Shown here in pieces: positions 4,810 through 32,000 of a stretch of 32,000 nt of DNA. Position 1 is the stretch's first letter, and each line of letters begins with the position of its first letter. Both the position numbers and the translations under genes were made by a program. This DNA is from Candidatus Lokiarchaeum ossiferum (GTDB lineage Archaea > Asgardarchaeota > Lokiarchaeia > Sigyniarchaeales > Promethearchaeaceae), in the NCBI GenBank assembly GCA_025839675.1, contig CP104013.1, positions 2,190,001-2,222,000 of the forward strand, read 5' to 3'. The notes beneath the pieces are model-generated. The model saw only the letters and a list, made by a program, of their open reading frames with translations. It searched no databases and had not been told where the DNA came from.

Positions 4810-6714
4810 TTAGTGATTAAAATGTTTATTTCTTGAAATTAAAAATACAATAGCAAGCCCAAATATTGTTATCAACGGGAATAGTGAATATCCAGGGATC
4901 ACTGCATCATTTACACTATTTGACCACTCATCAACAAGAAATGCATCAATTCCAAACCCATAAAGTCCAAGATCATATAGTTTAAACTCATAAATATTTT
5001 CCCCAGCTAATTTGTATTGCTCATTAATTGTATTTCCATAATTATCTACGTAAGATTCATTTGAATATACATGCCAAGTATTAAATTCAGCAGTATCTTC
5101 ATAATCAGATTTCCAGTGCATGAATTGAAGAGGAGGTTCTCCGAAAAGTAGGTTAGGTGATATTTCATCAGGATAAGTCAACCTTAAAGTTATAGGAAAT
5201 GTGACTGCTGATTTATTGGCAGCATTAATCCAAAAAACCACACCACCTCCCTCATAATAGGTATTATCAATTTCAACGTTCCCAAAAACACCATTATATT
5301 CACTTCGTGAATACATATCCATCCTATAATATCCTTCTTGCAGATTTCTTTCCCATTCAGATGCAGTAGAAGCTGCAAAGAACATATTTGTTGAAGTGGT
5401 TAATGTTGTTGATATAGTTAATTTGAATTTAACATCGGAATTGTATTCGAATGAAGGATCTAAAGATGAAATATACTTACCAGATTTCGCATTTCCAGAA
5501 TGAATGTTTTCTGTTTTTAAAAATTCTTGGCGGAGATAACCACCCAAATTTATTTCCATGCTATAATACGATGAACGTCCACTATTATCTACTGCAATAG
5601 CCATAAACCGTAAATTAGTAAAACGTGTTGAATATTGAGCTTCTAACTCAGATAATCGAATTGTTGTTAAAGGTACTTCATAAATTTGGTTAGATGAAAC
5701 ATTTTCAATAATACGATAAGGGTAAGGTTGGCCATAATCACCAAAAATAATGATATAAATTTTATCTAAATCATCATAAAGTGGAGAACTATCGGAATCA
5801 ATTGCAGATGTAACAATCATTGCATTTTGAGTCTCATACATGACAAAATCACCATATTGAGATGTTTTAGTTGCCATGTTGACGATTTGTGGAATATAAT
5901 TCCCCGCTTTTGTTAGATTGAAGCAATCATAGGTCGATTTCCCATTTTCGTCTATAACAAAAAGTTCTATTTTAGACGTAGATCCAACTTTATCATTAAT
6001 AGCAAAAATGGTTTCTAGATTTAAGTTAACATTTGTTCCAGAATATTCGTCATATCCATCGGAAATGCTATTATTATCAACTATAACTGTATAATTAAAC
6101 TTCAGATTATCAGTAGTGTAAACAGTCCATGAAAATGGTTGATAATTATCTGGATAGTAATAAAAATCATCATAATACATGCCTAAAACGGGATTATCCT
6201 CCGTAATATTTACAATCATTTCATGCGCATATATTTGCTGAGTTATTGAATGAAAAATTTCAAAGGTTACGTTGTGGATGCCGATGTTATTCATCACAGT
6301 ATTTTGTAGAGAATAATCAACAGTGAATTCCCAAGTGTTATAAATTTCCTGATAATCCTTTTGTTGACCATCAACGAAAATTCTATACCATTCAAATGTT
6401 CCTCTACATTCCCTATAATTTTCATCGTAAGGTAAGTAAAAATGAATTTGATTTTCAACTTGGTTTTGATATCGTTCTACATAAGTAGGGGCAAAAATAA
6501 ATTGATCAAATGGATATTTTCCCCCTAGATGATTATAATCATACATCTTGTAGGATGACTGAGAATCTAATGGTTGTTCAGAAGGTAGTTCTCTCAATCC
6601 ATTATTAGAAATATCTCGCCCATTATCAATTTTGGTGAAACTACTATTGAATATACATCCAAACATGAAAAGAACTATCAATGTTCTATACAAATAAGCA
6701 CGCTTCATTATCAT
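4810..6714 (-). CDS. Secreted/cell-surface protein, probably a glycoprotein, with an N-terminal signal peptide and a C-terminal PGF-CTERM-like anchor
   Basis: 634-aa ORF. N-terminus 'MIMKRAYLYRTLIVLFMFGCIFNSS' is a basic n-region plus a hydrophobic core. There are many N-x-S/T sequons (NSS, NVT, NIT, NYT, NLT, NVS, NKS, NES...). C-terminus '...VIPGYSLFPLITIFGLAIVFLISRNKHFNH' is P-G-aromatic, one TM helix and a basic tail. Confidence 0.75.
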   Translation of the reverse strand: MIMKRAYLYRTLIVLFMFGCIFNSSFTKIDNGRDISNNGLRELPSEQPLDSQSSYKMYDYNHLGGKYPFDQFIFAPTYVERYQNQVENQIHFYLPYDENYRECRGTFEWYRIFVDGQQKDYQEIYNTWEFTVDYSLQNTVMNNIGIHNVTFEIFHSITQQIYAHEMIVNITEDNPVLGMYYDDFYYYPDNYQPFSWTVYTTDNLKFNYTVIVDNNSISDGYDEYSGTNVNLNLETIFAINDKVGSTSKIELFVIDENGKSTYDCFNLTKAGNYIPQIVNMATKTSQYGDFVMYETQNAMIVTSAIDSDSSPLYDDLDKIYIIIFGDYGQPYPYRIIENVSSNQIYEVPLTTIRLSELEAQYSTRFTNLRFMAIAVDNSGRSSYYSMEINLGGYLRQEFLKTENIHSGNAKSGKYISSLDPSFEYNSDVKFKLTISTTLTTSTNMFFAASTASEWERNLQEGYYRMDMYSRSEYNGVFGNVEIDNTYYEGGGVVFWINAANKSAVTFPITLRLTYPDEISPNLLFGEPPLQFMHWKSDYEDTAEFNTWHVYSNESYVDNYGNTINEQYKLAGENIYEFKLYDLGLYGFGIDAFLVDEWSNSVNDAVIPGYSLFPLITIFGLAIVFLISRNKHFNH

Positions 6715-7505: not shown

Positions 7506-8897
7506 TCATTTATCTTGGATCTGTATGAAGGCTTTTTTTAACATTTGGATTGCAAGTAAAATATGTTTTTTCTCAACCCCTATTGCGGCATTCATGACTA
7601 CATAAGAGAAAGGTATTTCTGTTTTATTTGTACAAGACCCAAATTCAGACTTATTTAGATCAATGATCCTTGGACCGGTAACGCGTAAATTATATAGAAA
7701 TCCACCTAATTTTGAGATTTGATCTTGAGAAAATTTGGAAAGTGTTAATGCACACGATACTTTGTTTCCACAATCTATTAGCTTTTCCCCAAGATTTTCG
7801 GCAAGATTCTTCAGTTCAGATTGAAGTATGAAAAGATTTTCTTTTTGTTGTTTCATTTTGGATAAGTATCCGTTTTTTCCCATGCTTAGAAGAGACGTTA
7901 ATAAATGCATCGCAGGAGCAGCACTCGCTCTTCCAGCGTACGATTTGCTGATAGTTTGAATTAACTCTGAATTTGGGGATGCAATAATCGCCCCTCCGAC
8001 TGGAGTTAAGAAACATTTATCAGTACTCTGTATTATTGCATCCACCTTCCCTGCATCTATTGCCCCACGAATTATTTTCAAGATATCGCTAGATTGAACA
8101 CCATATGCGTTGTTAATTATATGAATGAGTTCATTTTTTTTGGCAAACTTTGAGATTTCTTTTATATTATCTGGAACCCTCGGGGCAAAAAATGCACAGT
8201 TTGTAATAATTGCACACACAGAATCGGAGTTTTTTTGAAAAATGGATTCAATTTCAGCCATATCAGTGTAAACACCTTCAGAAGCATAATAATTTTTTCC
8301 AAAATGACCCGGTATTGTGATTATCTCGGCTCCAATATATTTAATACCTTTGATGGGTGAATTGTGATCAATTTGAGTCATTAATACCATGTTTTTTTTT
8401 GTAGAGTTTATTTGAAAATGTGCTAAAGCACCTCGTAAAGCTAACCCAAGACTCATACCTGTACCCATGGGTACGACTAGAGAGCTTTTGATATTAGATA
8501 ACCCCAGAGACTTTAAAAGGGAAAAGGAAACTTTGTTTGACAAATTTTGCATTAAAGAGGCACCAGCAGCTTTTGGTTGGGGAGCCGCCAGCTCCCCACT
8601 TCTACCGACACCATGGCAAAAACCACCAATTTGATTAGACAGTAATTGAGTAGAAATTCTCCCTTCTCTTTCTCCAATCCGGATTGATTGTGGATCTTTA
8701 TCAGAATCTAAATGACTAAGAACATAAAGTAATTGAGTTATCTGATCATCATTCCAGCCCTCATCAGGGATAGATCTCTGTTCAAATAGTTGAATAATTG
8801 GCTTTGTATGAGCCCGTAATCCAATCGATGATCGATCCAACATATGAAGTGGAATACCGAGATTTTCAAGCTTCTTTGTAATAGATTTTTCCCACAT
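7506..8897 (-). CDS. spcS: O-phosphoseryl-tRNA(Sec) selenium transferase (SepSecS)
   Basis: Strong similarity, from memory, to human/archaeal SepSecS blocks: 'GEREGRI', 'HGVGRSGELAAPQPKAAGASL', 'VVPMGTGMSL', 'CAFFAPRVPD', 'INNAYGVQSS', the PLP-lysine block 'QSTDKCFLTPVGGAIIA', and 'YAGRASAAPAMHLLTSLLSMGKNGY'. The track starts at TTG 8900; the adjacent ATG at 8897 is the more likely start. Confidence 0.9.
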   Translation of the reverse strand: MWEKSITKKLENLGIPLHMLDRSSIGLRAHTKPIIQLFEQRSIPDEGWNDDQITQLLYVLSHLDSDKDPQSIRIGEREGRISTQLLSNQIGGFCHGVGRSGELAAPQPKAAGASLMQNLSNKVSFSLLKSLGLSNIKSSLVVPMGTGMSLGLALRGALAHFQINSTKKNMVLMTQIDHNSPIKGIKYIGAEIITIPGHFGKNYYASEGVYTDMAEIESIFQKNSDSVCAIITNCAFFAPRVPDNIKEISKFAKKNELIHIINNAYGVQSSDILKIIRGAIDAGKVDAIIQSTDKCFLTPVGGAIIASPNSELIQTISKSYAGRASAAPAMHLLTSLLSMGKNGYLSKMKQQKENLFILQSELKNLAENLGEKLIDCGNKVSCALTLSKFSQDQISKLGGFLYNLRVTGPRIIDLNKSEFGSCTNKTEIPFSYVVMNAAIGVEKKHILLAIQMLKKAFIQIQDK

Positions 8898-9045
8898 CAA
8901 TTCTCATTTAAAAATGTAGTGAACAAGCGTAAAAAGTCTTCCTCTCCAACTTTTATGAATTCATCTTTTCCTTAACATTGTTAAGAAAAAATAGGCCTCG
9001 TCTTTAAATTGGGTATTTTCTTTATATTATTAAAGAGGAAGGAAC

Positions 9046-10155
9046 TTGAGCGAACGAACTGGTACGAATAATAATAGATTTTGGAAAAAGCGTTTAAATA
9101 AACGCACTCGAAAAAAGGATCACGAAAAATTTCATGCTTCAATAGATAAAGACACATCCCTTACATTATATCGAAGAGAAGGAGGGCTTTATCTAATAAT
9201 CAAAAAAGAATTAGTAGAATATGATTTAACAATTAAACCTTCAGAAGCACCAGTCATTAACCAATATCTTAAAGTCCCGGACCCTTTTGAATCCATGTTG
9301 GCAGATATTAAGATATTTGAGAATGAAATCGAACCCTTAAATCTTGGAGTTCAGACCACCTTTGGAGAATCAAAAGATATTAACTTGATTTCAGTCAAAC
9401 TAGCTATAGGATCAGGAGAAGATGATTATGTCACCATAGACGAATCAGATCTATTTGCTATGGATGTGGAACCCACAATGACTGGGTTATTAGATTTCAT
9501 TCAAGCCAATGATAGCATAATCGGAATTTGTGATAGAATATTTGATCATGAAAAAGGAAATATTGTTCTTTTAGAAGCCAAATTAAGAGATCCGCACATT
9601 GGAATTTCATCCATAGAATTTAAAATTTTAAGCAGTCTCCATCAACGAGGGTTATATTTACAAAAAAATATGCGATATGCAGGATTACAACTTTATACGA
9701 TAATTAAAGCAGAAAGTCTAACTCCAGAATTACTCTCCTATTTGAAAGCTATAGATATAGACTGGGAAATAGTTTTCTTGCGCAGAGATTTAGCCATTGG
9801 TGATTGGTTGGAAGTAGAATGTGAAAAAAGTTCAATAAGTTTGAAAGGATATCTTGCTTCGAAATATGAATCCTTAGGTTTCTTTGATGTTAATAATATC
9901 ACCAGAATTGCTATCGTAAATCAACTCAGTTTTAAAATTGTGGTGAGAATGAGTGAACTCCTTAATCGCGTTAAATTTAACAAAGAAGAATTAACTGGAG
10001 GTTCTCCAGACCAAGATCCATTGAAAAAAGCAGAAATTATTGCAGCTGCAAATTTAGCTTGTGCCTATCATGGAATAAAAGTCGATATCAAAATTGATAA
10101 AGAAATTGATCCTCTCGAAATCCAACGATTTGAAGAAGAACTGATTCGACTTTAG
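9046..10155 (+). CDS. Hypothetical protein (369 aa)
   Basis: Long ORF divergent from spcS. The TTG start at 9046 is preceded by the purine-rich SD-like 'GAGGAAGG' (9035-9042). I recognise no motif. The start codon is uncertain, because a TATA-like 'TTTATATTA' sits at 9021-9029. Confidence 0.6.
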   Translation: MSERTGTNNNRFWKKRLNKRTRKKDHEKFHASIDKDTSLTLYRREGGLYLIIKKELVEYDLTIKPSEAPVINQYLKVPDPFESMLADIKIFENEIEPLNLGVQTTFGESKDINLISVKLAIGSGEDDYVTIDESDLFAMDVEPTMTGLLDFIQANDSIIGICDRIFDHEKGNIVLLEAKLRDPHIGISSIEFKILSSLHQRGLYLQKNMRYAGLQLYTIIKAESLTPELLSYLKAIDIDWEIVFLRRDLAIGDWLEVECEKSSISLKGYLASKYESLGFFDVNNITRIAIVNQLSFKIVVRMSELLNRVKFNKEELTGGSPDQDPLKKAEIIAAANLACAYHGIKVDIKIDKEIDPLEIQRFEEELIRL

Positions 10156-10163
10156 TTTTTTTT
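10156..10163 (+). terminator. Oligo-T tract after the 369-aa gene (candidate terminator)
   Basis: T8 run at 10156-10163 immediately after TAG 10153-10155. It overlaps the stop codon of the convergent recJ-like gene. Confidence 0.35.
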
Positions 10164-11673
10164 ACCCAATTTGTTCTTTCACAAATTCATTTACTTTCTC
10201 AATAAAATCTTTCAAATGGGCCGTTTTTATCTTTGCACCCGCTGCCGGAGGGTGCCCACCAGCAGGATTTTGAATTTTTAGTTGTTGACAGGCTTTACGC
10301 ATTACAATACCAAGATCTAAGCCTTTATCCAACAATTCTCGATTTGCTCTAGAAGACACTTTTAAAAAATGATTGTCAGAATCGGCAAACGCGATCAAAG
10401 GTTTATCATGTTGTAAATCTGAGTGAATTAGAATAGAACAAATAGTTCCTATAATTCGTTCATCTATAGTATTATCATAAACAGTTCGAATATATTCATA
10501 TTCACGAATTTGTTTCTTTGCAGATTGAATGGCCCGAGATAATTCTTTTTTATAGTCTTTTTTTTCACTCATGGCATCTGTTAGTGCCTCAGCATTCCCT
10601 AAAAGAGCCGCAATCCCAACACCTTGTTTCCCACGCCTCCCACATGCATTCAATAAACTTGACATTTCTCTAGCATCTGAAACAGAGATTTTTGGGTCAA
10701 AATCTGTTAAAATATAGAAAGTGGTCACTAATTTTTTGATATCATCGGTAGAAATACCTTTTTCTACTAAAGCATATTGAATCAATGCGTTTGTAAGTGT
10801 CTTTTTTTCCATCTCACTTAGATCTATCAAAGTTCGCGAATGGTTCAATTCGTCAGTCGCTTGAATATTTATCCGATTCAAAAATTGGACCACTCCATCA
10901 TAACTACCAGATAAACCTTCAATCTCTAAAGGGAGGGAATAAATTAACGATTGAATTAAAGGACGAGTCCTTGAAATGGCAATATTTTTCTCCAAAATTA
11001 TTTTTCTATCATTCATTGCTTCTTGCAAAATTTTCTGATTAATCCCTTTAAATTCACTTTTGTCGTTGTTATTTTGCATGTCACCAATAGCACCTACAAT
11101 AGCGAGGGCAGCCAAATCTTGATTTTTTTCATTCATTATTTTAGAAAAGAGATAACATATTCCAGCCCCAGAAATTTCATCCTCACCCCGAATATCGTAA
11201 AAATAAGGATTAATATGATTAATTTCAGGAGGATTATCAATTTTCTCTGGCTTGTGATGATCCAATATTAAAAAATCAGTTGTTTTTAATTTTTCTTTCA
11301 AAATCTCATATTGACCGGATCCAAAATCGGTTAAGACAATAAAACGATTATATTTTGATATCTCTTCAGCAATTGTTGCAATATACTGAGATTCTAATTG
11401 ATTTAAAATTGTAATTTGAAATCCAATATTCTCACGAGTGAACATTTTTGCCATAATTGCCGCAGCACTTAACCCATCAGCATCGAGATGACTATAAATG
11501 TGAATGTTTTTTTGGAAACGAGAAGAATCAAAATGTTGGAGACTAACCTTTTTTTGAAGATTAGGAGCGATTTCATCTTGATTTTTTGATGCTCCTTTCT
11601 CAATCTGAGCAAATAGAAAATCTTTAGCCTTTTGCATAGCATTTAGTAGTTCATTTAATGGTATCATACTCAC
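10162..11673 (-). CDS. RecJ/Cdc45-family DHH phosphoesterase (archaeal RecJ-like/GAN-type nuclease)
   Basis: 503-aa ORF. DHH motifs 'HLDADGLSAAAI' (I), 'VLTDFGSG' (II), 'ILDHHKPE' (III), 'GAIGDM' (IV) and the DHHA1 motif 'GGHPPAAGAKI'. The track start at 11673 is GTG; an ATG at 11667 is an alternative. Confidence 0.8.
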   Translation of the reverse strand: MSMIPLNELLNAMQKAKDFLFAQIEKGASKNQDEIAPNLQKKVSLQHFDSSRFQKNIHIYSHLDADGLSAAAIMAKMFTRENIGFQITILNQLESQYIATIAEEISKYNRFIVLTDFGSGQYEILKEKLKTTDFLILDHHKPEKIDNPPEINHINPYFYDIRGEDEISGAGICYLFSKIMNEKNQDLAALAIVGAIGDMQNNNDKSEFKGINQKILQEAMNDRKIILEKNIAISRTRPLIQSLIYSLPLEIEGLSGSYDGVVQFLNRINIQATDELNHSRTLIDLSEMEKKTLTNALIQYALVEKGISTDDIKKLVTTFYILTDFDPKISVSDAREMSSLLNACGRRGKQGVGIAALLGNAEALTDAMSEKKDYKKELSRAIQSAKKQIREYEYIRTVYDNTIDERIIGTICSILIHSDLQHDKPLIAFADSDNHFLKVSSRANRELLDKGLDLGIVMRKACQQLKIQNPAGGHPPAAGAKIKTAHLKDFIEKVNEFVKEQIG

Positions 11674-12344: not shown

Positions 12345-13616
12345 TCAAGCATTTAGAACAAGAAAATCAATTATTTTTTTGGAAATCGATCGCTTACTTG
12401 CAAGTTCTAGCTTAGTGGTGGCTTTTTGTGAATCAATAATAAACACTTCATTTGTGTCTGATCCAAATCCTTTTCCAGAAATGGAACTACCAGCATGATT
12501 TGCGACGATTAAATTAGCTTTAGATGTTGTTAGACGGTCATAAGCCTTTTCAATAATTTCTGAATCGGATAAATTTGATTCTGCTTTGAACGCAATAATG
12601 TAAAGATTTGGAGATTTTTCTCGGGCTAAAGAGATCAGTTTTGGTGTGGATATTAGATGCAGATCTAAAAATTGTTGATTGCTTGAGATCTTTTTATCTT
12701 GTCGCTTCTCTGGAGTAAAATCCGCTAATGCTGCGGTTGAGATTAAATAATCATATTTCTTGAGATCCAACTCTTTTAACATCGCATCTACAAAATTTTG
12801 AGTGGATTCTACATGGACGACTTTTGCACCAAGGGGGTCTTTGATGATACTCTTCCCTTTTAATAAAGTCACTTCACCACCTCGTGATAAAATTTCTTCG
12901 GATAATGCAATACCCATCTTTCCCGTTGAAGGATTTGAAAGAAAGCGAACATCATCAACCCACTCTATGCTAGGTCCTGCAGTGATCAAGAACTTTTTTT
13001 TGATTAAATCTTTGTTTGGAGAGAAAAAATTAATGACAAAATTAACAACTTCATCTACTGCAGCAATTTTAGCTTTGTTTTCTTCTAATCTAGGTCCAAG
13101 CACTTGTACACCTAAATTTTTTAGTTTTTGAATATTTTCTTGAACAATAGGATTTCGAAACATGGAATCGTGCATAGCTGGGACAATGGCCATTGGGGTT
13201 TTACTACCTAACGCAACCATTGAGATGGCGGTGACAGGATTATCACTTATCCCATGGGAGATCTTTCCAATAGAATTACCTGTTGCAGGACAAATCAGAA
13301 TCATGTCTGCGATACCTTTCGTATTTTCACGTTCTCCAGCAGTAGCGATGTGTTCAATTTTTCCAGTAATTTCAGTAATAACTGGATTACCCGTCGCCCA
13401 TTCTATTAAAGTTGGCTGAATTAGTTTAATTGCCTCTTCTGACATCACAGTAATAACTTCAGCACCATGTCGCATTAATTCCCGCGCTATTGAAGGAGCA
13501 TTTAAAATAGCCACACTTCCAGTTAAACACATACAAATGGTTTTACCTTGTAAATTTTCGCTTTTAATCCCAATTATATCTTTAGTAGGATGAATATGGC
13601 GAATCTGATTTTCCAT
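12345..13616 (-). CDS. coaBC: Bifunctional phosphopantothenoylcysteine decarboxylase / phosphopantothenate-cysteine ligase (CoaBC/Dfp)
   Basis: The N-terminal flavoprotein half has 'ICMCLTGSVAILNAPSIARELMRHGAEV' and 'PAMHDSMFRNPIVQENIQKLKNLGVQVLGP'. The C-terminal ligase half has 'ITAGPSIEWVDDVRFLSNPSTGKMGIALSEE' and 'AALADF'. The track ORF begins at TTG 13640; I place the start at the first ATG, 13616. Confidence 0.9.
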   Translation of the reverse strand: MENQIRHIHPTKDIIGIKSENLQGKTICMCLTGSVAILNAPSIARELMRHGAEVITVMSEEAIKLIQPTLIEWATGNPVITEITGKIEHIATAGERENTKGIADMILICPATGNSIGKISHGISDNPVTAISMVALGSKTPMAIVPAMHDSMFRNPIVQENIQKLKNLGVQVLGPRLEENKAKIAAVDEVVNFVINFFSPNKDLIKKKFLITAGPSIEWVDDVRFLSNPSTGKMGIALSEEILSRGGEVTLLKGKSIIKDPLGAKVVHVESTQNFVDAMLKELDLKKYDYLISTAALADFTPEKRQDKKISSNQQFLDLHLISTPKLISLAREKSPNLYIIAFKAESNLSDSEIIEKAYDRLTTSKANLIVANHAGSSISGKGFGSDTNEVFIIDSQKATTKLELASKRSISKKIIDFLVLNA

Positions 13617-13865
13617 GAGACTAGTTAAAGCACAATTCAAAAAAATATTTCTTATGCCTCAGTATATATCTTTGTGATTACAAGGAATGATAGAATTTTA
13701 GAATTTCCAAAAAGTTTAAATATGTCAAAAAAAGATAACAATCTTTAATACGGAGCGTTTTATTTATTGAACTTGAAAATTGAATTGGAGTTTTGATTCC
13801 TAAGCGAATATATTCATAATCCGACAAAAATAATTCCAACAGCCCACTAAGGCAATTGATCTACA

Positions 13866-19154: not shown

Positions 19155-19751
19155 ATGGCTGTTGTAAAAAAATATGAACATCTGGAAGAATTCATTCATT
19201 GTGTAGACATTGGCATCGATACAAATACCGATTTAGTTCGGTGGACCCGTCCTCAAACAAATATTTTTAGATTGGAGATGTTACATGCCAGAGAAATGGC
19301 AAAACCAGGAATTTATCTTCATATTGAGAAATCGAATCGAAGAACTGTATTTATCCGAAAAGAAAAAATTGTTTTTATTATTGTAGCAGACGATTCGGTG
19401 CAATATCAATTGTTGGAAGCAATTTTAGAAGTGACTATGAAAGCCTTTTTTGATTCCTATGAGGATCTTCTAAGTGGGTTTTTAACTGGGATGACAAACA
19501 TGTTTGGTGGATTTCAAAGCTTGATCACTCCGTTATTTATTAAAGCATTGAAAGAAAATGTAAGATGGATTTCAGCTCACTGCAACGTTTGCAATGCTAA
19601 TCACTCCGTTTGCGTTAAAAAATCATTTATTAATAATGCGCCACGGTACCCAGCATCAATCGTATTCAAACATGAAGGGCATGGTCTTTTAATATATATT
19701 GATGGAGATTTCAAGATAAGGGGTCAAGAAGTAGTTGAAATTACAGGTTAA
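19155..19751 (+). CDS. Hypothetical protein: longin/roadblock-like N-terminal alpha/beta domain plus a C-terminal Cys/His cluster
   Basis: Starts 7 nt after the previous gene. 'KIVFIIVADDSVQYQLLEAILEVTMKAFFDSYEDLL' resembles the beta5-alpha2 segment of longin-type domains such as adaptor sigma subunits (from memory). The C-terminus has 'HCNVCNANHSVC...KHEGHGLLIYIDGDFKIRG'. Confidence 0.6.
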   Translation: MAVVKKYEHLEEFIHCVDIGIDTNTDLVRWTRPQTNIFRLEMLHAREMAKPGIYLHIEKSNRRTVFIRKEKIVFIIVADDSVQYQLLEAILEVTMKAFFDSYEDLLSGFLTGMTNMFGGFQSLITPLFIKALKENVRWISAHCNVCNANHSVCVKKSFINNAPRYPASIVFKHEGHGLLIYIDGDFKIRGQEVVEITG

Positions 19752-19784: not shown

Positions 19785-22601
19785 TTATTTAATGCTAAGT
19801 GCAGGTTTTCCAGGAAGGGCTTGGTCTTTCTTTTTATTATCTGAGTTTGTTTCTTTTACAATAATTATTTTGGTACCAAGATCATTTTCGAGTAATGCTA
19901 AATTTTCAGTAAAGAATGCATATTCTTCCTCTTGATTAGGGAAAGGCACTGAAAATTTTCCTGGATTTTTAGAAATTCGCCCCAAAAACCCTTTGATTTG
20001 CTTTCCATAACGCTTCAAATCTGGTTTTGACATGGCATTTTTCATTAAATCCCCAAAATTTTTCCCATCCTTAATCATGGAAAGAGTTTCTTCAGTAAAT
20101 TGATTTTTCCAAGAATCAGCAATAATGATTTGAATTTCCTTTGGAACTTCAATTTTTATCAATTTCTGAATATTTTTGACATCATCTAATACATTTTCAT
20201 AACATTGCCAACGTAATTCGATGGATTCATTTATATACTGAGAATCGAATGCAGGCCATTTACAAAGAGAAACATAGGGATCATGTCCCTTGAGATGCCA
20301 TAATTCTTCACACATATGGGGGACGATAGGGGCAAGCATCAATATTAATGTTTCCTGACATTGCCCAAAAAGTTGTTTATTAGGCACCATTTCACAATAT
20401 TTTCGAAGCACATCAGCGAAACCAATGATTTCATTTAAAGCATCTCGAATTAACATTGTTTGATAAAGTTCCGTCACATTTCTAATCATACGATGCAAGC
20501 GATATTGGATATAACCATCGTAAACATCAACTGAATCCCTGGTTGAAATTGGGATATCATTAACTAGATCCCAGATTTTTAACATAATACGATTGTCGGC
20601 ACTACAACCTGCATCTGACCAATCCATTTCCTTTACAGGATTTGCGGCATGCATAATGAAGAAACGAGCAGTATCTGCACCAAATTCCTCGACAATTCTT
20701 TGGGGAGATATCGTATTTCCCAAGCTTTTGGACATTTTGGCAGATTTTAGAATATATTTTGACCCACATGTATTACAAGTTTCGGTTTCCATATTATATT
20801 CTCCCGTCCAATTTCCTTCTTTGTTATAAGATTTGGGCAAGAATTTGTTACAAGATTCGCAATAAGGATGAGGAAGATTAACCATCCCTTGGGTCAAGAG
20901 TGCTTTAAAAGGCTCATTAAAACTATGCAAACCAAAATCGCGAGTTATTTTAGTGAAAAATCGTGCGTAGAGTAAATGTAAGATTGCATGTTCGATCCCT
21001 CCAATATATTGATCAACCGGCCCCCAATATTCCACATCTTCCTTATTGAATGGAACATCACCTAATTTAGGACTAGTGTATTTTAGGAAATACCAAGAAG
21101 AATCCACGAAAGTATCCATCGTATCCGATTCTCTTCGAGCAGCTTTTCCACATTTAGGACATGAAACATTCATGAAAGATTCACTATGTTCCAAAGGATT
21201 ACCAGTCTTACCAAAAACAGCATCTTGAGGCAATTCAACAGGTAATTGATCAATTGGAACGGGAACTACCCCACATTCATCACAAAATATCATTGGTATT
21301 GGTGTACCCCAATAACGCTGGCGAGATACAAGCCAATCTCGAATTTTATAATTTGTTGTTTTTCCGCCTTTACCAATTTCTTTTAACTTCTCTGCAATAC
21401 GATCAATAGCTACTCGATTCTCAACGCCAGAAAAATCTTCAGATTTATCTAATACACCATCTTCAATAAATGCCCGAGACATTTTCTCCCCTTCAAGAAC
21501 AAATCCATCAAAGGGTTGAATAACGACTTTAATGGGAATGCCATATTTTTTAGCAAATTCAAAATCTCGTTGATCATGAGCTGGAACGGCCATAACTGCC
21601 CCGGCACCATAACCATATATAACAAAATTCCCTGCATAAATGGGTATTTTATCTCCATTCAAAGGATTAATTGCATATTTACCCAAGAAAACTCCTTTCT
21701 TTTCAGTTTCATCAGCCATGCGTTTATATCGATCTTGCTCCATCACTTCTTCATAAAATTCTAGATATTCTGCTTCATATTCAGTATCCTTAACAAATTC
21801 TTTGCACCAAGGATGTTCTGCGGCCATGGTCATAAAAGTGACACCAAAAATGGTATCAACTCGGGTAGTAAAAATACTTAGTGTTTTGTCAGTTCCTTCA
21901 ACAGCAAAATCTGCTACAGTTCCCTCACTTCGTCCAATCCAATTTCGCTGCATAGTTTTTACTTTTTCAGGCCATTCAAGATCATCCAACCCTTGAAGCA
22001 ATTCATCAGCATATTCACGGATTTTGTAAAACCATTGGGATAAAAATTTAGGATTCACATCAGAACTACACCGCCAGCATTTTCCATTTATGACTTGTTC
22101 ATTGGCTAACACTGAAGTACAGCCAGGGCACCAATTCACGAGTGATTCTTTCCGATAAGCCAACCCTTTTTCATACATTTTAAGAAAGATCCATTGATTC
22201 CAACGATAATAATCTTTTTCAATGGATGACACTTCTCTTCGCCAATCGTAGCTATAACCGATTCGTTTTTGATTTTCTTTAATACTTGCAATATTTTTAC
22301 GAGTTGTTATTTCTGGATGAGTTCCTTGCTTAATTGCAGCAATTTCTGCAGGTAATCCAAAAGAATCATAACCCATAGGATAAAGAACATTAAACCCATT
22401 CATCCGTTTAAAACGAGCGAGAGTATCACCAATCGTATAATTGCGGAGATGTCCCATGTGCATTTTACCGCTTGGATATGGATACATTTCGAGGCAATAG
22501 AATTTTTTTTTGGAAGGATCCTTTTCCACTTCAAAGATTTTGGCTTCTTCCCATTTTTTCTGCCATCCAAGTTCAATTTCTTGGGGCTTGTATTCAACCA
22601 T
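19785..22601 (-). CDS. leuS: Leucyl-tRNA synthetase (bacterial-type core)
   Basis: 938 aa. HIGH region '[20 protein letters not shown]' and KMSKS '[10 protein letters not shown]'. Blocks '[24 protein letters not shown]', '[14 protein letters not shown]', '[17 protein letters not shown]' and '[18 protein letters not shown]' closely match E. coli-type LeuRS as I recall it. Confidence 0.95.
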
Positions 22602-23008: not shown

Positions 23009-24859
23009 TTATTTAACAGTCACGCTTTTTGCAAGATTTTTTGGTTTATCTGGATCAAAGCCTTTATAATCCGAAACAAAGTAAGCAAGCATCTGTAATG
23101 GTAATACAAAAGGAACGATAGACATCGCAATTGCATACTTGTTATTTTTGATTGGAACTCGAATAGTATGATGAGAGATTTCGGAAATATTTACATCGTA
23201 ATCCGCAACGACAGATATGATCATAGCACCGCGACTTTTCATCTCCATCACATTTCCAATAATTTTGGGGTAAGTTTGATCTGGTGGAGTGATGAAAACA
23301 CATGGAAATCCCTCTTCAATTAGAGCAATTGGCCCATGTTTAGATTCTCCCGCAGCATATGCTTCAGTGTGAATGTAGGCAATTTCTTTCAACTTTAAAG
23401 CTCCTTCAAAAGCAGCCGAAGTTGAAATTCCCCGAGCTAAGAAATATAAATTAGATTTATAGGCAATTTTATGGGCTAAATTAATTAGAGATTTTTCATC
23501 TTTAAGAATCAAAGCACAAGCTTCGGCAGTATCTAATAGTGCAGATTCATATTTTTCGATTTCATCTGTTGTTAATGTATTCGTGAGTGTTGCGATTTTT
23601 AAAGCAACCATAGATAGAGCAGTCACTTGTGTGCAATATGCTTTTTGGGATGCTACTGCAATTTCAGGACCCGCCGTTGTTATTATAACATGGTCTGAAT
23701 ATCGGGTGAGGGAAGATCCAACAACATTTACCACAGAACAGATCTTTACACCGAATTGTTCTTTAGCATATCTCACTGCTTCGATAGTATCGGCAGTTTC
23801 TCCAGATTGGGAAACGGCAATCAATACAGAATTCGGAGGAATAGTTGGTAATGCATCAACTAACTCGGAACACAAAATTCCTTGAATATAAGGACCTCCA
23901 AATTTAGTAATTTGATATTTTCCCGCTATTGCCGCATAATAAGCTGTTCCCGCTGCAGTGATAAATACATGATCAGCATTGAGAATTGCTTGAGCAAACT
24001 CATCAAGATGTTCTTGGGGCATTCTGACTTGATCAATAATTTTCCGAGGGATTTCATGCATTTCCTTATGCATGAACCATTTGTACTCTTTTCCATCAAG
24101 TACTTTTTGAGCAGCATCCATGGAATAATCAACAGTAAAAATTTCTCGTTTGGCTTTTTCTCCATCATCTACGTGGAAAATCTCACATTTTCCAGGATAT
24201 AAAACTGCAACTTCATTATCATCGAGGATTATTGCATTCCTTGTTAAGGGAAGAAATGCTGGAATGTCAGATCCACAATAGGTTGTTTCATCTTCTGTAA
24301 TTCCAATAACAAGAGGTGATTCTTTTCTTGCAACGACCATATATTCGGGATTATCAGCATCACAAACCACAACTCCATAAGCCCCTTTACATAATTTTAC
24401 TGTTTCAATTACAGAATCTTTAAGATCCAAACCAGTTTTGCGAAATTCTTCAATCAAATGAGGAAAAACTTCCGTATCGGTTTCTGATACTAGTTTATGT
24501 CCACGTTCAGTCAATTTTCTTCGCAAATCTTGATAATTTTCAATAATACCATTATGAACAAGCGCAATTTTTCCTGTGCAATCCATATGTGGATGAGAGT
24601 TATTTGCAATTGGAGGTCCATGAGTTGCCCATCGAGTATGCCCCACACCGAACTGACCAGGCATTTTGTCAAACCAGCCATCAGCGTTGATATCAGCAAT
24701 TCGTCCGGCTTTTTTTCTAAGTTCAATTTTACCATTATTTACAAGAGCAATCCCGGCTGAATCATAACCGCGATATTCCATACGTTCAAGACCTTCACGT
24801 ATAAGTTGCGCAACGTTTATGTCTTTTCGTTTACTAATTAATCCAAAAATTCCACACAT
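23009..24859 (-). CDS. glmS: Glutamine--fructose-6-phosphate aminotransferase (isomerising)
   Basis: 616 aa. N-terminal nucleophile 'MCGIFG', then 'YRGYDSAG', 'GHTRWATHG' and 'HNGIIENY'. SIS-domain blocks 'SQSGETADT' and 'HGPIALIE'. The C-terminus 'KNLAKSVTVK' matches the usual ...KSVTVE ending. Confidence 0.95.
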   Translation of the reverse strand: MCGIFGLISKRKDINVAQLIREGLERMEYRGYDSAGIALVNNGKIELRKKAGRIADINADGWFDKMPGQFGVGHTRWATHGPPIANNSHPHMDCTGKIALVHNGIIENYQDLRRKLTERGHKLVSETDTEVFPHLIEEFRKTGLDLKDSVIETVKLCKGAYGVVVCDADNPEYMVVARKESPLVIGITEDETTYCGSDIPAFLPLTRNAIILDDNEVAVLYPGKCEIFHVDDGEKAKREIFTVDYSMDAAQKVLDGKEYKWFMHKEMHEIPRKIIDQVRMPQEHLDEFAQAILNADHVFITAAGTAYYAAIAGKYQITKFGGPYIQGILCSELVDALPTIPPNSVLIAVSQSGETADTIEAVRYAKEQFGVKICSVVNVVGSSLTRYSDHVIITTAGPEIAVASQKAYCTQVTALSMVALKIATLTNTLTTDEIEKYESALLDTAEACALILKDEKSLINLAHKIAYKSNLYFLARGISTSAAFEGALKLKEIAYIHTEAYAAGESKHGPIALIEEGFPCVFITPPDQTYPKIIGNVMEMKSRGAMIISVVADYDVNISEISHHTIRVPIKNNKYAIAMSIVPFVLPLQMLAYFVSDYKGFDPDKPKNLAKSVTVK

Positions 24860-25248: not shown

Positions 25249-27558
25249 ATGGTTCTTCAATCAAAACAAAATTCTTTCTATGAATCCCAGAATTCAACTA
25301 AAGATTCATCCCAGCTCCTAACAGAACTAAGATTTCTATTAGAGCATTCGGTTGAAGCCAGAAAAGTAACATTACGTGAATATTTTTCTCTTTTACTTAA
25401 ATTTAATCAACAAGGTTCAGCAAAAAAATTAAAGGATCATTTTCATGAAGATAACTTCAAAGAATCATGTAAAACATCTCACAATCAAGCCTTGTTAGAA
25501 ATTATTATGAGAGTTTTTTCTGAATATGAATCTATGTACTTGGATACGAGTGAAGAGATTCTTTGGCATATAATTGAATATTTAATAGTCAAGTTAAGTG
25601 ATTATCAATATTGTACTGAATGTTTCAATTGGCAAATAAGTGAAATTCCGCGAATGTCAAAAAAAAATGAGAAAGAAAAGCAGAAAAAGTGGTTCTGTTC
25701 TTCATGTCAGAATCGGGTTACTATTTTTCCAAAATTTGAGTTATTTCCAGATTTTCTTGAATATTTCATAAGATTGAATAGTGATGTCTCTAGATTTAAG
25801 AGAATAAAAAAGAAACTCTTTAAAAAATGGAGTAAGGGTCTATCATTTAATTCTAAAAAACACCAACATCTAATAATATTATTTTATGAGTTGTTTGAGG
25901 ATCTTTATTCCTATGCTAAAAAACAATCGGATATAAAAGGAATTTACAAAATATGGTCAATTGGTCAAAAATTTAACTTCATATCACTCTTTAAAGAAGA
26001 TCCCGCTTATGTGTTTGTTGCTGATCATTTAGTGAAACAAATAGAAAGAGCGGATTTTTCAGATTATTCGATGTGTTTGGATTATGTTGGGAAAATGGCC
26101 CCACCGGGAAAATATTCGATTCAAGATTTTCTTTTGAAAGGTGGGATTGAAAAAAATATTGTACGAGCAGTAAGTACTTGTGAACTCGATAAATTTCAGC
26201 ACAGTTTTAATTTTGGGGTGAACAATGGATTAATTCAACATGAAGAATTTCTTTCATCACCACATTTCAATGCTGCATGCTCTCGTGGATTGTTCTTTGC
26301 CTTGAAGAATTCCCATTTTGATAAATTTGAAGATTTAGTTGATTTAATTCATTTTTATGGTATTAATACACCTGCATCAGGAATATCAAACAGATATCGC
26401 CTAATGGGGGAGATCTTTATTAATTCAATTAGAATGCAGCGATTAGATCGTACCTTTTCAATTCTTAAGTTTGGGCTAAAACACAAATTATATAATCACC
26501 CTTCTTCAAAAGAACGTTTACAGCAGATTAAATCTTTGAAAAGGAATAAACAACTTATACAGTGTCTAAAAAATTTAATGGATATTAAAAATGGAGTAAA
26601 TTTGAATGAAATGCTTAACTTCATTTATTACTATTTACCACCGAAAATATTTGAATATTTCACAGATTTATTTGAATTCATAACCGATGAAGATGAATTA
26701 ATCAATTATATGAATGATTTTGTCGATAATTTTACCCTATATGGACTTTCTTTAAAAAAAATTGGAACCACTTCTCATTTTATGAAGAATATTAAAAAAA
26801 TTCTTTCTACAAAAATACTCTATCAAGATGAAGTAGAAATATTATATTCAAAACGTACGATTCTTCTTTCCCGTTCCAATTTATATGAATTAAGGAGACG
26901 CATCCATTCAAAACAACGGAATTATGAGTTTCTCATGTTGGGAATGGTAATGAAAGGAGGGTTGGGCCCACAAGGTTTTGGTTTTGTCTACTTAACACCT
27001 CGTGGCGAAATGGTAGAAATTTGTTCAGATTCTAAAGCAAATGATGCATATATTGTCCATTTTAAACAATTCCTTAAAACAGACTTTATTAATGAGCTAG
27101 AAGCTAAAATTCGCACGCTCTCTCTGACTATATATCAACGAGAACGCCTTTTGGAAATCTTAGAAGGAAAGTTGGGATATTCTCAATTAATAGGATATAA
27201 AAAGGAACAGTTTATTTTACACCAAGTCAAGGATTTTTTGGAAGATGAATTCGACTTTAAACGAATTACATCTGATGAAATATCCAAACTATTTCATTCT
27301 CTAGAAAATAAAATTCATGCCATTCTATCACCAGTATCACTCGTTGATCAATATAGATGCAGATTAGATTTAGTAACACAAGGAAAAGTCAGTCCAGGTG
27401 ACATTGCTAAGCTTACCAGTTTGGGAGAAAAATCTCATTTTGACCTATTGCAAGAACGGTACTTTTATCAATCTATTCTACAAGTATATAAAAAAAAATT
27501 CCAGAATGATGATAGCTTTAGCGATCCGAATGTATATGGTGATATTGATTTAATCTAA
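25249..27558 (+). CDS. Large hypothetical protein (769 aa) with one zinc-ribbon-like CxxC...CxxC motif
   Basis: Uninterrupted 2.3-kb ORF with coding-like composition. 'CTECFNWQISEIPRMSKKNEKEKQKKWFCSSCQNRV' is the motif. I recognise no other domain. Confidence 0.65.
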   Translation: MVLQSKQNSFYESQNSTKDSSQLLTELRFLLEHSVEARKVTLREYFSLLLKFNQQGSAKKLKDHFHEDNFKESCKTSHNQALLEIIMRVFSEYESMYLDTSEEILWHIIEYLIVKLSDYQYCTECFNWQISEIPRMSKKNEKEKQKKWFCSSCQNRVTIFPKFELFPDFLEYFIRLNSDVSRFKRIKKKLFKKWSKGLSFNSKKHQHLIILFYELFEDLYSYAKKQSDIKGIYKIWSIGQKFNFISLFKEDPAYVFVADHLVKQIERADFSDYSMCLDYVGKMAPPGKYSIQDFLLKGGIEKNIVRAVSTCELDKFQHSFNFGVNNGLIQHEEFLSSPHFNAACSRGLFFALKNSHFDKFEDLVDLIHFYGINTPASGISNRYRLMGEIFINSIRMQRLDRTFSILKFGLKHKLYNHPSSKERLQQIKSLKRNKQLIQCLKNLMDIKNGVNLNEMLNFIYYYLPPKIFEYFTDLFEFITDEDELINYMNDFVDNFTLYGLSLKKIGTTSHFMKNIKKILSTKILYQDEVEILYSKRTILLSRSNLYELRRRIHSKQRNYEFLMLGMVMKGGLGPQGFGFVYLTPRGEMVEICSDSKANDAYIVHFKQFLKTDFINELEAKIRTLSLTIYQRERLLEILEGKLGYSQLIGYKKEQFILHQVKDFLEDEFDFKRITSDEISKLFHSLENKIHAILSPVSLVDQYRCRLDLVTQGKVSPGDIAKLTSLGEKSHFDLLQERYFYQSILQVYKKKFQNDDSFSDPNVYGDIDLI

Positions 27559-27997: not shown

Positions 27998-29035
27998 ATG
28001 TATTTTTATCTAGGTAGATCATCATTGCCCAAATCATGTAAATTTTTCAGTGAATGCAAGAGTCCTGCCGTATACCAGATACCACATTCTCGATTATCCC
28101 TTTGTCGACAGCATTATTTAAAAAATGTTGAGAAACGTGTGAAAGAATTGATTGAAAAAAAGCATATGTTTCATCCTGATCGCGATGAAAAACTTTTAGT
28201 TGCTGCAAGCGGTGGAAAAGACTCTCAAGTTTTATTGTCGATAATCAAAAAATTATATCCGGTAGGATTGGATGTTGAGGCACTGTATATTGAACTCGGA
28301 ATTTCCCAAGAAAACTATTCTCAAGATTCCGGTATAGTAGCAAGAAAATTTTGTGAAGAATTGAATATCCCATTTCATCAACTCAACGTCAAAGATACCT
28401 ATGGATTCAATATAGACGATATCCATCAGCTCAACGCAGAAGTTGAAGATCGAAAGTGGAAATTTGATAAAGATCCCATGCGGGGGGAATGCTCCTATTG
28501 TGGTACTTTGAAACGGTATATGATCAATAAATTTGCATTTGAAAATGGTTTTACTTGCGTGGCCACAGGCCATAACTTAACTGATGAAACAACTCAATTA
28601 ATGAACAACTTCTTTAATATGGATTTGAACTTCTTGGCAAAATCGGGTCCTGTTGCAGATGTCCATATTCCCAAGCTTGTTCCTAGAGTAAAACCACTAT
28701 TCTTCATCAGCGAAGAAGAAATTGCAATGTATGCATATTTTGCAGATATTGCCCATTTAGGGACAGAATGTGCATATTCCACCCATGTACCGAATATTCA
28801 ATTAAAAAAAGCCCTAAAAGAAATTGAGGATTATCGAAGAGGGAATAATTTAAGTTTAGCGAGAAGATATCATAAAATTATGCAACCAGTTATTGAAAAA
28901 GCAGTCCATTCTGATAAATCAAATGATAAATTATGTAGTGTCTGTGGATTTCCAACTTTTGGCAAAAAATGCAAGTTTTGCAAAACGATTGCAGTTCTAA
29001 CTGACAGATTTCAACAATTGAAAATCGAGTTATAA
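27998..29035 (+). CDS. TtuA/NcsA (Ncs6/Ctu1)-family PP-loop ATPase, tRNA 2-thiouridine synthesis protein
   Basis: PP-loop 'VAASGGKDSQVLL', plus 'CSYCGTLKRY' and 'VATGHNLTDE'. N-terminal Zn finger 'CKFFSECKSP...LCRQHY' and C-terminal Zn finger 'CSVCGFPTFGKKCKFCK'. Confidence 0.85.
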   Translation: MYFYLGRSSLPKSCKFFSECKSPAVYQIPHSRLSLCRQHYLKNVEKRVKELIEKKHMFHPDRDEKLLVAASGGKDSQVLLSIIKKLYPVGLDVEALYIELGISQENYSQDSGIVARKFCEELNIPFHQLNVKDTYGFNIDDIHQLNAEVEDRKWKFDKDPMRGECSYCGTLKRYMINKFAFENGFTCVATGHNLTDETTQLMNNFFNMDLNFLAKSGPVADVHIPKLVPRVKPLFFISEEEIAMYAYFADIAHLGTECAYSTHVPNIQLKKALKEIEDYRRGNNLSLARRYHKIMQPVIEKAVHSDKSNDKLCSVCGFPTFGKKCKFCKTIAVLTDRFQQLKIEL

Positions 29036-29112: not shown

Positions 29113-29188
29113 GGGCCTATGGCTTAGTTGGTAGAGCACCTGGTTCGCAATCAGGGGGTCGGGGATTCAAATTCCCCTAGGTCCACCA
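29113..29188 (+). tRNA. tRNA-Ala (anticodon CGC) with genomically encoded CCA
   Basis: Folded by hand into a cloverleaf. Acceptor stem GGGCCTA/TAGGTCC includes the G3:U70 alanine identity pair. D stem is GCTT/GAGC. Anticodon stem is CCTGG/TCAGG with loop TTCGCAA (anticodon CGC). The variable loop is 5 nt. T stem is GGGGA/TCCCC with loop TTCAAAT. Discriminator A is at 29185 and CCA at 29186-29188. No intron. Confidence 0.93.
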
Positions 29189-30561: not shown

Positions 30562-30644
30562 AGTATCTTAACCCCAAATTTTTTTTGAAATCCTTGTTTT
30601 ATCGTTCTTATTAGAAGTACCCATAACTTAGAAATGTGACTTTA

Positions 30645-32000
30645 ATGAAAGAAGAATTATCAAAAGTATATGATCATCACGCCATTGAAAAGGAATTGTA
30701 TGATTGGTGGGAAAAAGAGGGTTATTTCCGACCCGAAAAAGCTAAAGAATTGGGATTGATTAACCCTGATGAACCCAGTTATTGTATCACACTCCCTCTT
30801 CCAAATGTAACAGGTCAACTTCATTTAGGACATGCCATCACGATTTCCTTAGAAGATTTGATGACACGTTTTAATCGTATGTGCTATAAAGAAACTTTAT
30901 TTATTCCGGGCACAGATCATGCTGGGATCGCCACTCAGAATGTTGTTGAGCGAGAATTATTAAAACAAGGTATTAAACGGAAGGATTTGGGAAGAGAGAA
31001 GTTTATTGAAAAAGTATGGGAATGGAAAGATCAATACCATGCCCGTATTACCAAACAATCAAAAAGCTTAGGAATTAGTTCCGATTGGAGCCGTGAACAT
31101 TTTACCTTAGATGAAGATCTTTCTAGAGCTGTCCGAGAAGCTTTTTATCGCTTATATCAAAAGGGATTAATTTATCGTGGGGAATATATGGTTAATTGGT
31201 GCCCTGGCCGATGTGAATCCGCAATTTCGGATCTTGAAACCGAAGCTGTTGATGAACATGGCCATTTATGGTATATCAAATATCCTATCCAAACCGACAA
31301 GTGGAATGGACCTACGGATAAATGGGGGAGTGGAAATTGGGCAAAGGGAGCAGAGCAATTTATAATGGTCGCAACTAGCCGCCCTGAAACGCTTTTAGGA
31401 GATAGTGCGATTGCTACCCATTCCAAACATCCCGAATATGGCACACTCATCGGTAAACATGCAATTTTACCCGCAGTAGGAAGAAAAGTTGCAATCATTA
31501 CAGACGAACATGTTGATCCCGAATTTGGAACAGGAGCAGTTAAAATTACCCCATCACATGATCCGAATGATTTTGAAGTAGGACAAAGGCATTCATTAGA
31601 ATTCATCACAGTAATGGATCATAAATCCCGAATGCTTCCAAATTTCTGTGAATTGTATACGGGTATGGATCGTTATGAATGCCGCGAAGCGATAGTTGCC
31701 GATTTGGAAAAGGAAGGATTACTTGTTAAGGTAGAACCCCACGTTCATGCCGTAGGTCATTGTTCACGCTGTCATACAACCATAGAACCTCGAGTTTCGA
31801 TTCAATGGTTTGTCAAAACTAAAACTCTTGCTGAAGCAGCCATCGAGAAAGTGAAAGCTAAAGAAACAATCATAATGCCTGAACGGGAAGAACATCGATT
31901 TTATCATTGGATGGGCAATATTCGCGATTGGTGTATCAGTCGCCAACTATGGTGGGGACATCAAATTCCTGTATGGTACTGTAAAGATTGTGGAGAAAAA
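30645..32000 (+). CDS. valS: Valyl-tRNA synthetase, N-terminal 452 codons (continues past the window end)
   Basis: Absent from the ORF track because it is open to the window edge. Hand translation from ATG 30645 gives 'MKEELSKVYDHHAIEKELYDWWEKEGYF'. It includes the HIGH region 'PLPNVTGQLHLGHA', 'PGTDHAGIATQNVVE' and 'YRGEYMVNWCPGRCESAISDLE'. The frame is exact to nt 32000. Confidence 0.93.
   Translation, partial: MKEELSKVYDHHAIEKELYDWWEKEGYFRPEKAKELGLINPDEPSYCITLPLPNVTGQLHLGHAITISLEDLMTRFNRMCYKETLFIPGTDHAGIATQNVVERELLKQGIKRKDLGREKFIEKVWEWKDQYHARITKQSKSLGISSDWSREHFTLDEDLSRAVREAFYRLYQKGLIYRGEYMVNWCPGRCESAISDLETEAVDEHGHLWYIKYPIQTDKWNGPTDKWGSGNWAKGAEQFIMVATSRPETLLGDSAIATHSKHPEYGTLIGKHAILPAVGRKVAIITDEHVDPEFGTGAVKITPSHDPNDFEVGQRHSLEFITVMDHKSRMLPNFCELYTGMDRYECREAIVADLEKEGLLVKVEPHVHAVGHCSRCHTTIEPRVSIQWFVKTKTLAEAAIEKVKAKETIIMPEREEHRFYHWMGNIRDWCISRQLWWGHQIPVWYCKDCGEK

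Follow-up and report, generated by a model that had tools for sequence, protein, structure and literature searches.

Introduction

Chimeric leucyl-tRNA synthetases (LeuRS) are known from haloarchaea. Andam et al. (2012) described the bacterial-type "LeuRS-B" of Halobacteriales, with a breakpoint near position 780 (PMC3436685), and Fang et al. (2014) characterised biochemically the two Natrialba magadii enzymes NmLeuRS1 and NmLeuRS2, which share the architecture discussed here (PMC4005665). In N. magadii LeuRS the archaeal tail is required for charging and confines charging to archaeal tRNA-Leu (PMC4005665). A chimera and an archaeal-type copy may coexist in one genome, as reported for the haloarchaeon Haladaptatus paucihalophilus (PMC4005665).

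We analysed a leuS gene of the Asgard archaeon Candidatus Lokiarchaeum ossiferum, whose genome is a single contig of 6,035,313 bp with 33.6% GC. The gene lies in a stretch of 32,000 nucleotides, hereafter the window, to which the coordinates of Table 1 refer. The explanation that best accounts for the data as a whole, to which we give a probability of about 0.6, is that of a working chimeric LeuRS acquired already fused from a DPANN stock.

Table 1. Features of the chimeric leuS gene and of its surroundings, in window positions
Feature	Position	Strand	Basis or remark
leuS, chimeric leucyl-tRNA synthetase, 938 aa (P0001)	19785..22601	-	ORF open throughout
Bacterial-type part, aa 1-785: Rossmann fold, ZN-1, CP1, ZN-2, LS domain, KMSKS, helical anticodon-side bundle	20247..22601	-	TIGR00396, PDB, Foldseek, sliding identity
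Archaeal-type C-terminal tRNA-Leu-reading domain, aa 786-938	19788..20246	-	Profile matches, PDB sequence search, structure superposition
HIGH motif, HMGH, aa 48-51	22449..22460	-	Both His invariant in 128 chimeras
ZN-1 putative zinc motif, C158/C161/C175/C178	22068..22130	-	Zinc binding predicted
CP1 editing domain at the bacterial position, aa 219-406	21384..21947	-	PF13603, E 3e-64; conservation
ZN-2, bacteria-specific zinc domain, C440/C443/C481/C484	21150..21284	-	Defined as in PMC4005665
LS domain as Cys4 zinc ribbon, aa 575-621	20739..20879	-	Two CxxC; beta-hairpins in model; PMC6588880
KMSKS motif, aa 622-626	20724..20738	-	
Type II R-M-like methylase	2122-4176		
SepSecS	7506-8900		
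DHH/RecJ-Cdc45-like protein	10162-11673		
CoaBC-like flavoprotein	12345-13640		
GlmS-like	23009-24859		
TtuA-like protein	27998-29035		
tRNA-Ala(CGC)	29113-29188		

A bacterial-type body and an archaeal-type tail

The protein unites a bacterial core with an archaeal tRNA-reading tail, as a sequence-only reading of the locus had proposed; all the LeuRS motifs quoted in that reading are found in the 938-residue frame. The profile of bacterial LeuRS (TIGR00396, leuS_bact) matches residues 4-792 with 943 bits (cut-off 548), from its position 1 to its position 780 of 843, so that the bacterial tail is left unmatched. At the opposite, the whole protein scores under the cut-offs of the archaeal models: 318.6 bits against 648.5 for TIGR00395 (leuS_arch), and 377.2 against 677 for PRK12300. 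When residues 770-938 are queried alone, only archaeal models respond (PRK12300, E 1.9e-23; TIGR00395, E 7.5e-20), and no bacterial model matches; the claimed absence of the bacterial C-terminal module is thus borne out, and the resemblance to archaeal LeuRS holds in statistical alignment.

Comparison with solved structures gives the same picture. The best sequence matches of the whole protein in the PDB are the LeuRS of T. thermophilus, Neisseria and E. coli, over residues 2-797, and its AlphaFold model (pLDDT 90.9) finds bacterial LeuRS as top Foldseek matches. For the tail, P. horikoshii LeuRS (1wz2) comes first both by sequence (E 2e-14) and by superposition of the model (pLDDT 90.2; Z 15.5, rmsd 4.1 over 153 residues), which agrees with the tail being called Pyrococcus-type. 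Human LeuRS ranks second in both comparisons, by sequence as the cytosolic enzyme and by structure with Z 10.0; none of the bacterial LeuRS chains was matched by the tail in the PDB sequence search. Sliding identity places the switch from bacterial to archaeal at about residues 785-800, just past the WP motif.

The bacterial-type and archaeal-type parts of the gene cannot be told apart by GC or GC3 (0.26 versus 0.23), as expected for an old gene, and the closest homologues carry the labels Promethearchaeota or Lokiarchaeota. We considered an assembly chimera and rejected it. In three RNA libraries, all from a single study, contigs run across the junction between core and tail with zero differences—such contigs can neither rank expression nor exclude DNA—and the same architecture recurs in 174 sequences of the Lokiarchaeia group.

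Catalytic, editing and tRNA-reading residues

HMGH, KMSKS, ZN-1 and ZN-2 are intact and conserved among the chimeras, and so are, in CP1, the Thr-rich editing motif and the catalytic Asp346. D79 and Q189 are present; they match D80 and Q190, the bacterial-specific residues of N. magadii LeuRS1, where these equivalents were shown to matter (PMC4005665). In the tail, D807, I811, P933, L935 and I937 align to the tRNA-reading residues D845, I849, P962, I964 and I966 of P. horikoshii, and the final residue is Lys, not Glu.

The host has five tRNA-Leu genes, two of which are misnamed by ARAGORN and contain an intron in the D-loop. In all five the variable stem is short and ends in a GUAG or AUAG loop, and the discriminator is A73; this amounts to the archaeal determinants A47c/G47d read by the archaeal tail (PMC4005665). 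This AG-tipped variable loop is retained in four genomes whose only LeuRS is the chimera.

Homology to N. magadii LeuRS1 and to the LeuRS of P. horikoshii makes it very probable that the enzyme is active, and its mode of recognition may be drawn with equal assurance. The bacterial-type body would activate leucine through HMGH and KMSKS, CP1 would edit mischarged tRNA, and the archaeal-type tail would recognise the long variable arm of archaeal tRNA-Leu at its A47c/G47d tip; the enzyme would thus charge the tRNAs of its own host.

Distribution and probable role of the chimera

Among 151 genomes of the class of the host, 135 have the bacterial-type core (37 of the 40 of high quality) and 75 an archaeal-type LeuRS (18 of 40). 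Both are found in 66 genomes, the bacterial core only in 69, the archaeal type only in 9 and neither in 7, single-copy counts that incomplete genomes inflate. Wherever a fetched locus of the class extends to the 3' end of leuS, it includes the archaeal tail. Of 47 other loci covered by a targeted search, 11 have the downstream neighbour of the gene (19155-19751) next to the chimera, which fits vertical inheritance. In the other Asgard classes the archaeal type prevails (50/54) and the chimera occurs once in 103. This lone chimera (L032, in G061, a genome 78% complete) nests inside the same-order group, and is either a recent transfer or a binning error.

The sequence-only reading had raised the question of a second, archaeal-type leuS, and there is one: the host genome encodes a full, intact-looking archaeal-type LeuRS (848 bits, in the region G000:C1:1379912-1382818). 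Its coexistence tempers the share of charging that can be attributed to the chimera in this host. Second copies that are weak have been reported (PMC4005665, PMC9437257), and one may ask whether the chimera is a non-charging or accessory paralogue, in the manner of N. magadii LeuRS2 or Sulfolobus LeuRS-I, or else an artefact of assembly. We find this scarcely credible: all the catalytic motifs are intact and conserved, separate contigs span the junction, and a permissive search detected no archaeal-type leuS in five near-complete relatives (G158, G136, G157, G219 and G125), the first of which is a single contig of 4.4 Mb. As the sole LeuRS found in these five relatives, the chimera most likely charges tRNA-Leu in vivo, and Lokiarchaeia very probably use it as their working LeuRS.

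The archaeal-type LeuRS of Lokiarchaeia (L001:1468-4410; L036-L065) fall in four separate places of their own tree and read KMGKS in all 26 sequences scored. The host copy pairs with the copy of a methanogen genome (G315, mcrA present) with support 98/98. These archaeal-type copies are possibly secondary acquisitions.

A search with the tail profile retrieved many chimeras outside Asgard; where named, they belong to Woesearchaeota, Nanoarchaeota, Diapherotrites and Nanohaloarchaea. A scan of genome contigs gave mostly bacterial matches and no further chimeras. In the literature searched on LeuRS in Asgard, Lokiarchaeota, Woesearchaeota and DPANN, we found neither a description of this distribution or of the link to DPANN nor a paper on the DPANN chimeric LeuRS, a weak negative as most subscription papers lay outside the search. 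Six of the DPANN proteins are longer, 1066-1094 residues (P0201, P0297, P0313, P0315, P0322 and P0327), and five of them have additional matches to the alpha/beta-hydrolase families PF12697 and PF06821. Another chimera, L208, is sister to the haloarchaeal chimeras; its genome, G318, measures about 2 Mb, is archaeal and lacks mcrA.

Genes around leuS

Convergent with leuS, the segment 13866-19751 (+) carries a very long topoisomerase VI B gene (1138 aa), a topoisomerase VI A gene and two small followers. Three further ORFs, 4810-6714 (634 aa), 9046-10155 (369 aa) and 25249-27558 (769 aa), have no Pfam match at E 0.001. A ValRS gene starts in the window (30636-32000, +; best model PRK05729, 980 bits, cut-off 704) and is the second member of a pair whose other gene lies at G000:C1, about 123100-125900 (best model PRK13208, 749 bits, cut-off 738). 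PRK05729 is a bacterial ValRS model and PRK13208 an archaeal-type one, and this pair would parallel that of LeuRS.

History of the bacterial-type core

Core trees were built on 77 rows and 738 columns, the LS insert being removed, with LG+G4 and C20-PMSF. They are quick, unrooted searches with SH-aLRT values only and 33 bacteria, and the DPANN sequences were collected by similarity to one Woesearchaeota query. The chimeras of the Lokiarchaeia group cluster together (SH-aLRT 99), and this cluster joins two DPANN-type rows, P0301 (of a Nanoarchaeia cluster) and P0377, at 99-100. With both models the Loki cores sit within a 41-row group (97-98) made entirely of chimeras, all 41 carrying the tail. 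The separate phylogeny of the core proposed in the earlier reading thus yields a bacterial-type core, as announced, that groups with DPANN chimeras; with the taxa sampled, its derivation from a direct bacterial donor is rejected.

That a bacterial leuS was transferred directly and independently into the Loki lineage, and fused there, would fit the best bacterial match, which is 50% identical and has a Cys/His-rich LS insert of 36 residues resembling the common Loki insert. However, on the core and with the taxa sampled, the AU test rejects it: p is 2e-5 when the core is forced with the best-match bacteria and 0.004 when it is forced to the bacterial side of the DPANN and halo groups. We hold such a transfer to be very improbable. 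When all chimeric cores, including the three halo-group sequences, are constrained to one group, the fit is no worse than that of the free tree (AU p 0.53), which makes a single origin shared with the halo group possible; the halo core branch is long and shifts between models.

We propose instead that an already fused gene passed from the Woesearchaeota/Nanoarchaeota chimera stock to the ancestor of Lokiarchaeia, and that the chimera was then passed on by vertical descent to become the main LeuRS, the archaeal-type copies being patchy and of mixed origin. We regard this history as having slightly better than even chances. That the enzyme fused in DPANN, once transferred to this ancestor, took the place of the native Asgard enzyme in many lineages is a more tentative proposal, to which we lean less than halfway. 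The direction from DPANN to Loki is likely, not proven, and the main tension with it comes from the leucine-specific domain.

The leucine-specific Cys ribbon

The sequence-only reading had seen a CxxC...CxxC ribbon at the position of the leucine-specific (LS) domain. It is indeed there: C581/C584 and C609/C612, in a 47-residue insert just ahead of KMSKS. In the Loki-group chimeras the insert has 36-47 residues, and 165 of the 166 scored have the two CxxC; none of the 106 DPANN chimeras scored has the ribbon, and the DPANN and halo-group chimeras scored show a loop of 5-6 residues in its place. The LS domain has been proposed, from ECOD, to descend from a zinc ribbon, and a Cys-retaining example from the deltaproteobacterium Desulfotignum was modelled (PMC6588880). 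Most likely the Cys ribbon is thus an LS domain that retained its zinc ligands.

Some bacteria of the best-match phylum have Cys/His inserts of 36-40 residues in a register similar to that of the Loki insert. An HMM of the LS insert gives these bacterial Cys-rich inserts 6-13 bits, above all shuffles for five distinct inserts and not for three, which is only suggestive of a relationship.

The absence of the ribbon from DPANN is where the proposed direction is strained, as a DPANN source would need several losses of the ribbon or one regain. The shared origin could then have run in reverse, or the two could be sister lineages: the chimera would have arisen in or near Lokiarchaeia, which kept an ancestral LS ribbon, and DPANN would have received it and lost LS. 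Besides the pattern of the ribbon, two observations go in this direction, namely that DPANN monophyly on the core is only borderline disfavoured (AU p 0.056) and that in the PMSF tail tree the tails of DPANN cluster apart as one group (97/90). We nevertheless judge this scenario improbable. The position of the Loki cores with two DPANN-type rows is strongly supported, and undoing it, by imposing DPANN monophyly, costs 78 log-likelihood units; moreover the presence of LS varies within one bacterial phylum, which makes it a weak marker.

Origin of the tail

The tail alignment is short (80 rows, 153 columns; LG+G4 and PMSF). The Loki tails form one group, with support 97-98. Loki and DPANN-type tails come together in 94.5% of bootstraps with LG+G4 and 80% with PMSF; for Loki tails and those of the nearest Asgard the values are 0% and 2.5%. 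In the PMSF tree the Loki tails lie beside the DPANN group, not inside it, and six Asgard tails share an open fork with them. The DPANN chimeric tails intermix with archaeal-type tails, one Woesearchaeota tail included. The halo-group tails stand apart from the Loki and DPANN tails in both trees, so that there may have been more than one event in which the tail was joined or replaced. By tail HMM the median scores are 121 bits for DPANN chimeras, 85 for other Asgard, 65.5 for the archaeal type of Loki, 46.7 for the host copy and 0 for bacteria.

The tail might be Asgard-born, a core from the archaeal chimera stock having recombined in the class ancestor with a resident Asgard leuS and kept the tail of the latter. 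No AU test rejects this (p 0.053, 0.286 and 0.428; 0.258 in a further test); the open fork of the PMSF tree is compatible with it, some Asgard tails reach 109-113 bits, and tails elsewhere seem to track their host groups, those of DPANN being mixed with archaeal-type tails and those of the halo group being apart. On the other hand the bootstrap for Loki with the nearest Asgard tails is practically nil, and the tail of the archaeal-type copy of the host is only 24% identical to that of the chimera, the lowest-scoring non-bacterial group compared. Finally, as every row of the core group is tailed, one earlier fusion is simpler. An Asgard birth of the tail thus appears unlikely to us, and the own archaeal copy of the host is disfavoured as tail donor, not rejected.

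The sequence-only reading saw in the gene a case of domain-level adaptation after transfer, to which an Asgard-born tail would correspond, with the class ancestor as the place of the event. Its chimerism stands. That a bacterial gene received the host's own tail is not favoured, since the core goes with DPANN chimeras that were already tailed and the host tail scores 46.7 bits against 121; the AU values (0.05-0.43) leave a host tail unrejected.

Comparison with known systems

The architecture and mechanism of the chimera are already known from haloarchaea, and what is added here, relative to the literature searched, is its range, over an Asgard class and DPANN, and the probable link to DPANN. 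A hybrid enzyme taken for a haloarchaeal oddity now spans both groups, which indicates that a bacterial core can serve archaeal translation provided that the archaeal tail is retained. Should the proposed history be true, the haloarchaeal chimera would represent a single branch within a type of archaeal LeuRS that is widespread, and the transfer would offer a link for relative dating and a hint of an ancient association between DPANN and Asgard. As a marker gene for placing Lokiarchaeia, leuS is unsafe. Comparing Lokiarchaeia in culture that have one LeuRS form with those that have two would allow testing why both coexist, and the Cys4 LS domain offers a natural test of the proposed zinc-ribbon ancestry of this domain.

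Compared with the haloarchaeal chimeras, the enzyme has the same bacterial N-terminal region through the helical bundle, the same archaeal tail and the same junction; it is colinear over residues 3-938 with that of Haladaptatus caseinilyticus (WP_266081785, 39% identity). Both have ZN-2 and the equivalents of D79 and Q189, and in both cases the host has the archaeal tRNA-Leu determinants. They differ in that the present host is an Asgard and not halophilic, in the Cys4 LS ribbon of 47 residues, against 5 in three halo-group proteins, and in their tails, which do not group together.

The chimeric LeuRS of Woesearchaeota and Nanoarchaeota (MBW2983101, MBU1198782, HLD06572; also those of Diapherotrites and Nanohaloarchaea) share architecture and junction, with 45-53% identity, and are the nearest group in both core and tail analyses, but are without the LS domain. 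With bacterial LeuRS-B (T. thermophilus 1h3n/2v0c, E. coli 4aq7) the chimera shares the sequence and fold of the core, the position of CP1, ZN-1 and ZN-2; it lacks their C-terminal domain, and its LS keeps four Cys. With archaeal LeuRS-A (P. horikoshii 1wz2) it shares the sequence, fold and tRNA-reading residues of the C-terminal domain, whereas its whole-protein score (319 bits) stays below 648.5 and the placement of CP1 differs. Lastly, the LS domain of Desulfotignum phosphitoxidans LeuRS has the same zinc-ribbon form just before KMSKS (PMC6588880), Cys3His in that model versus Cys4 here, where the ribbon is class-wide in an archaeal chimera.
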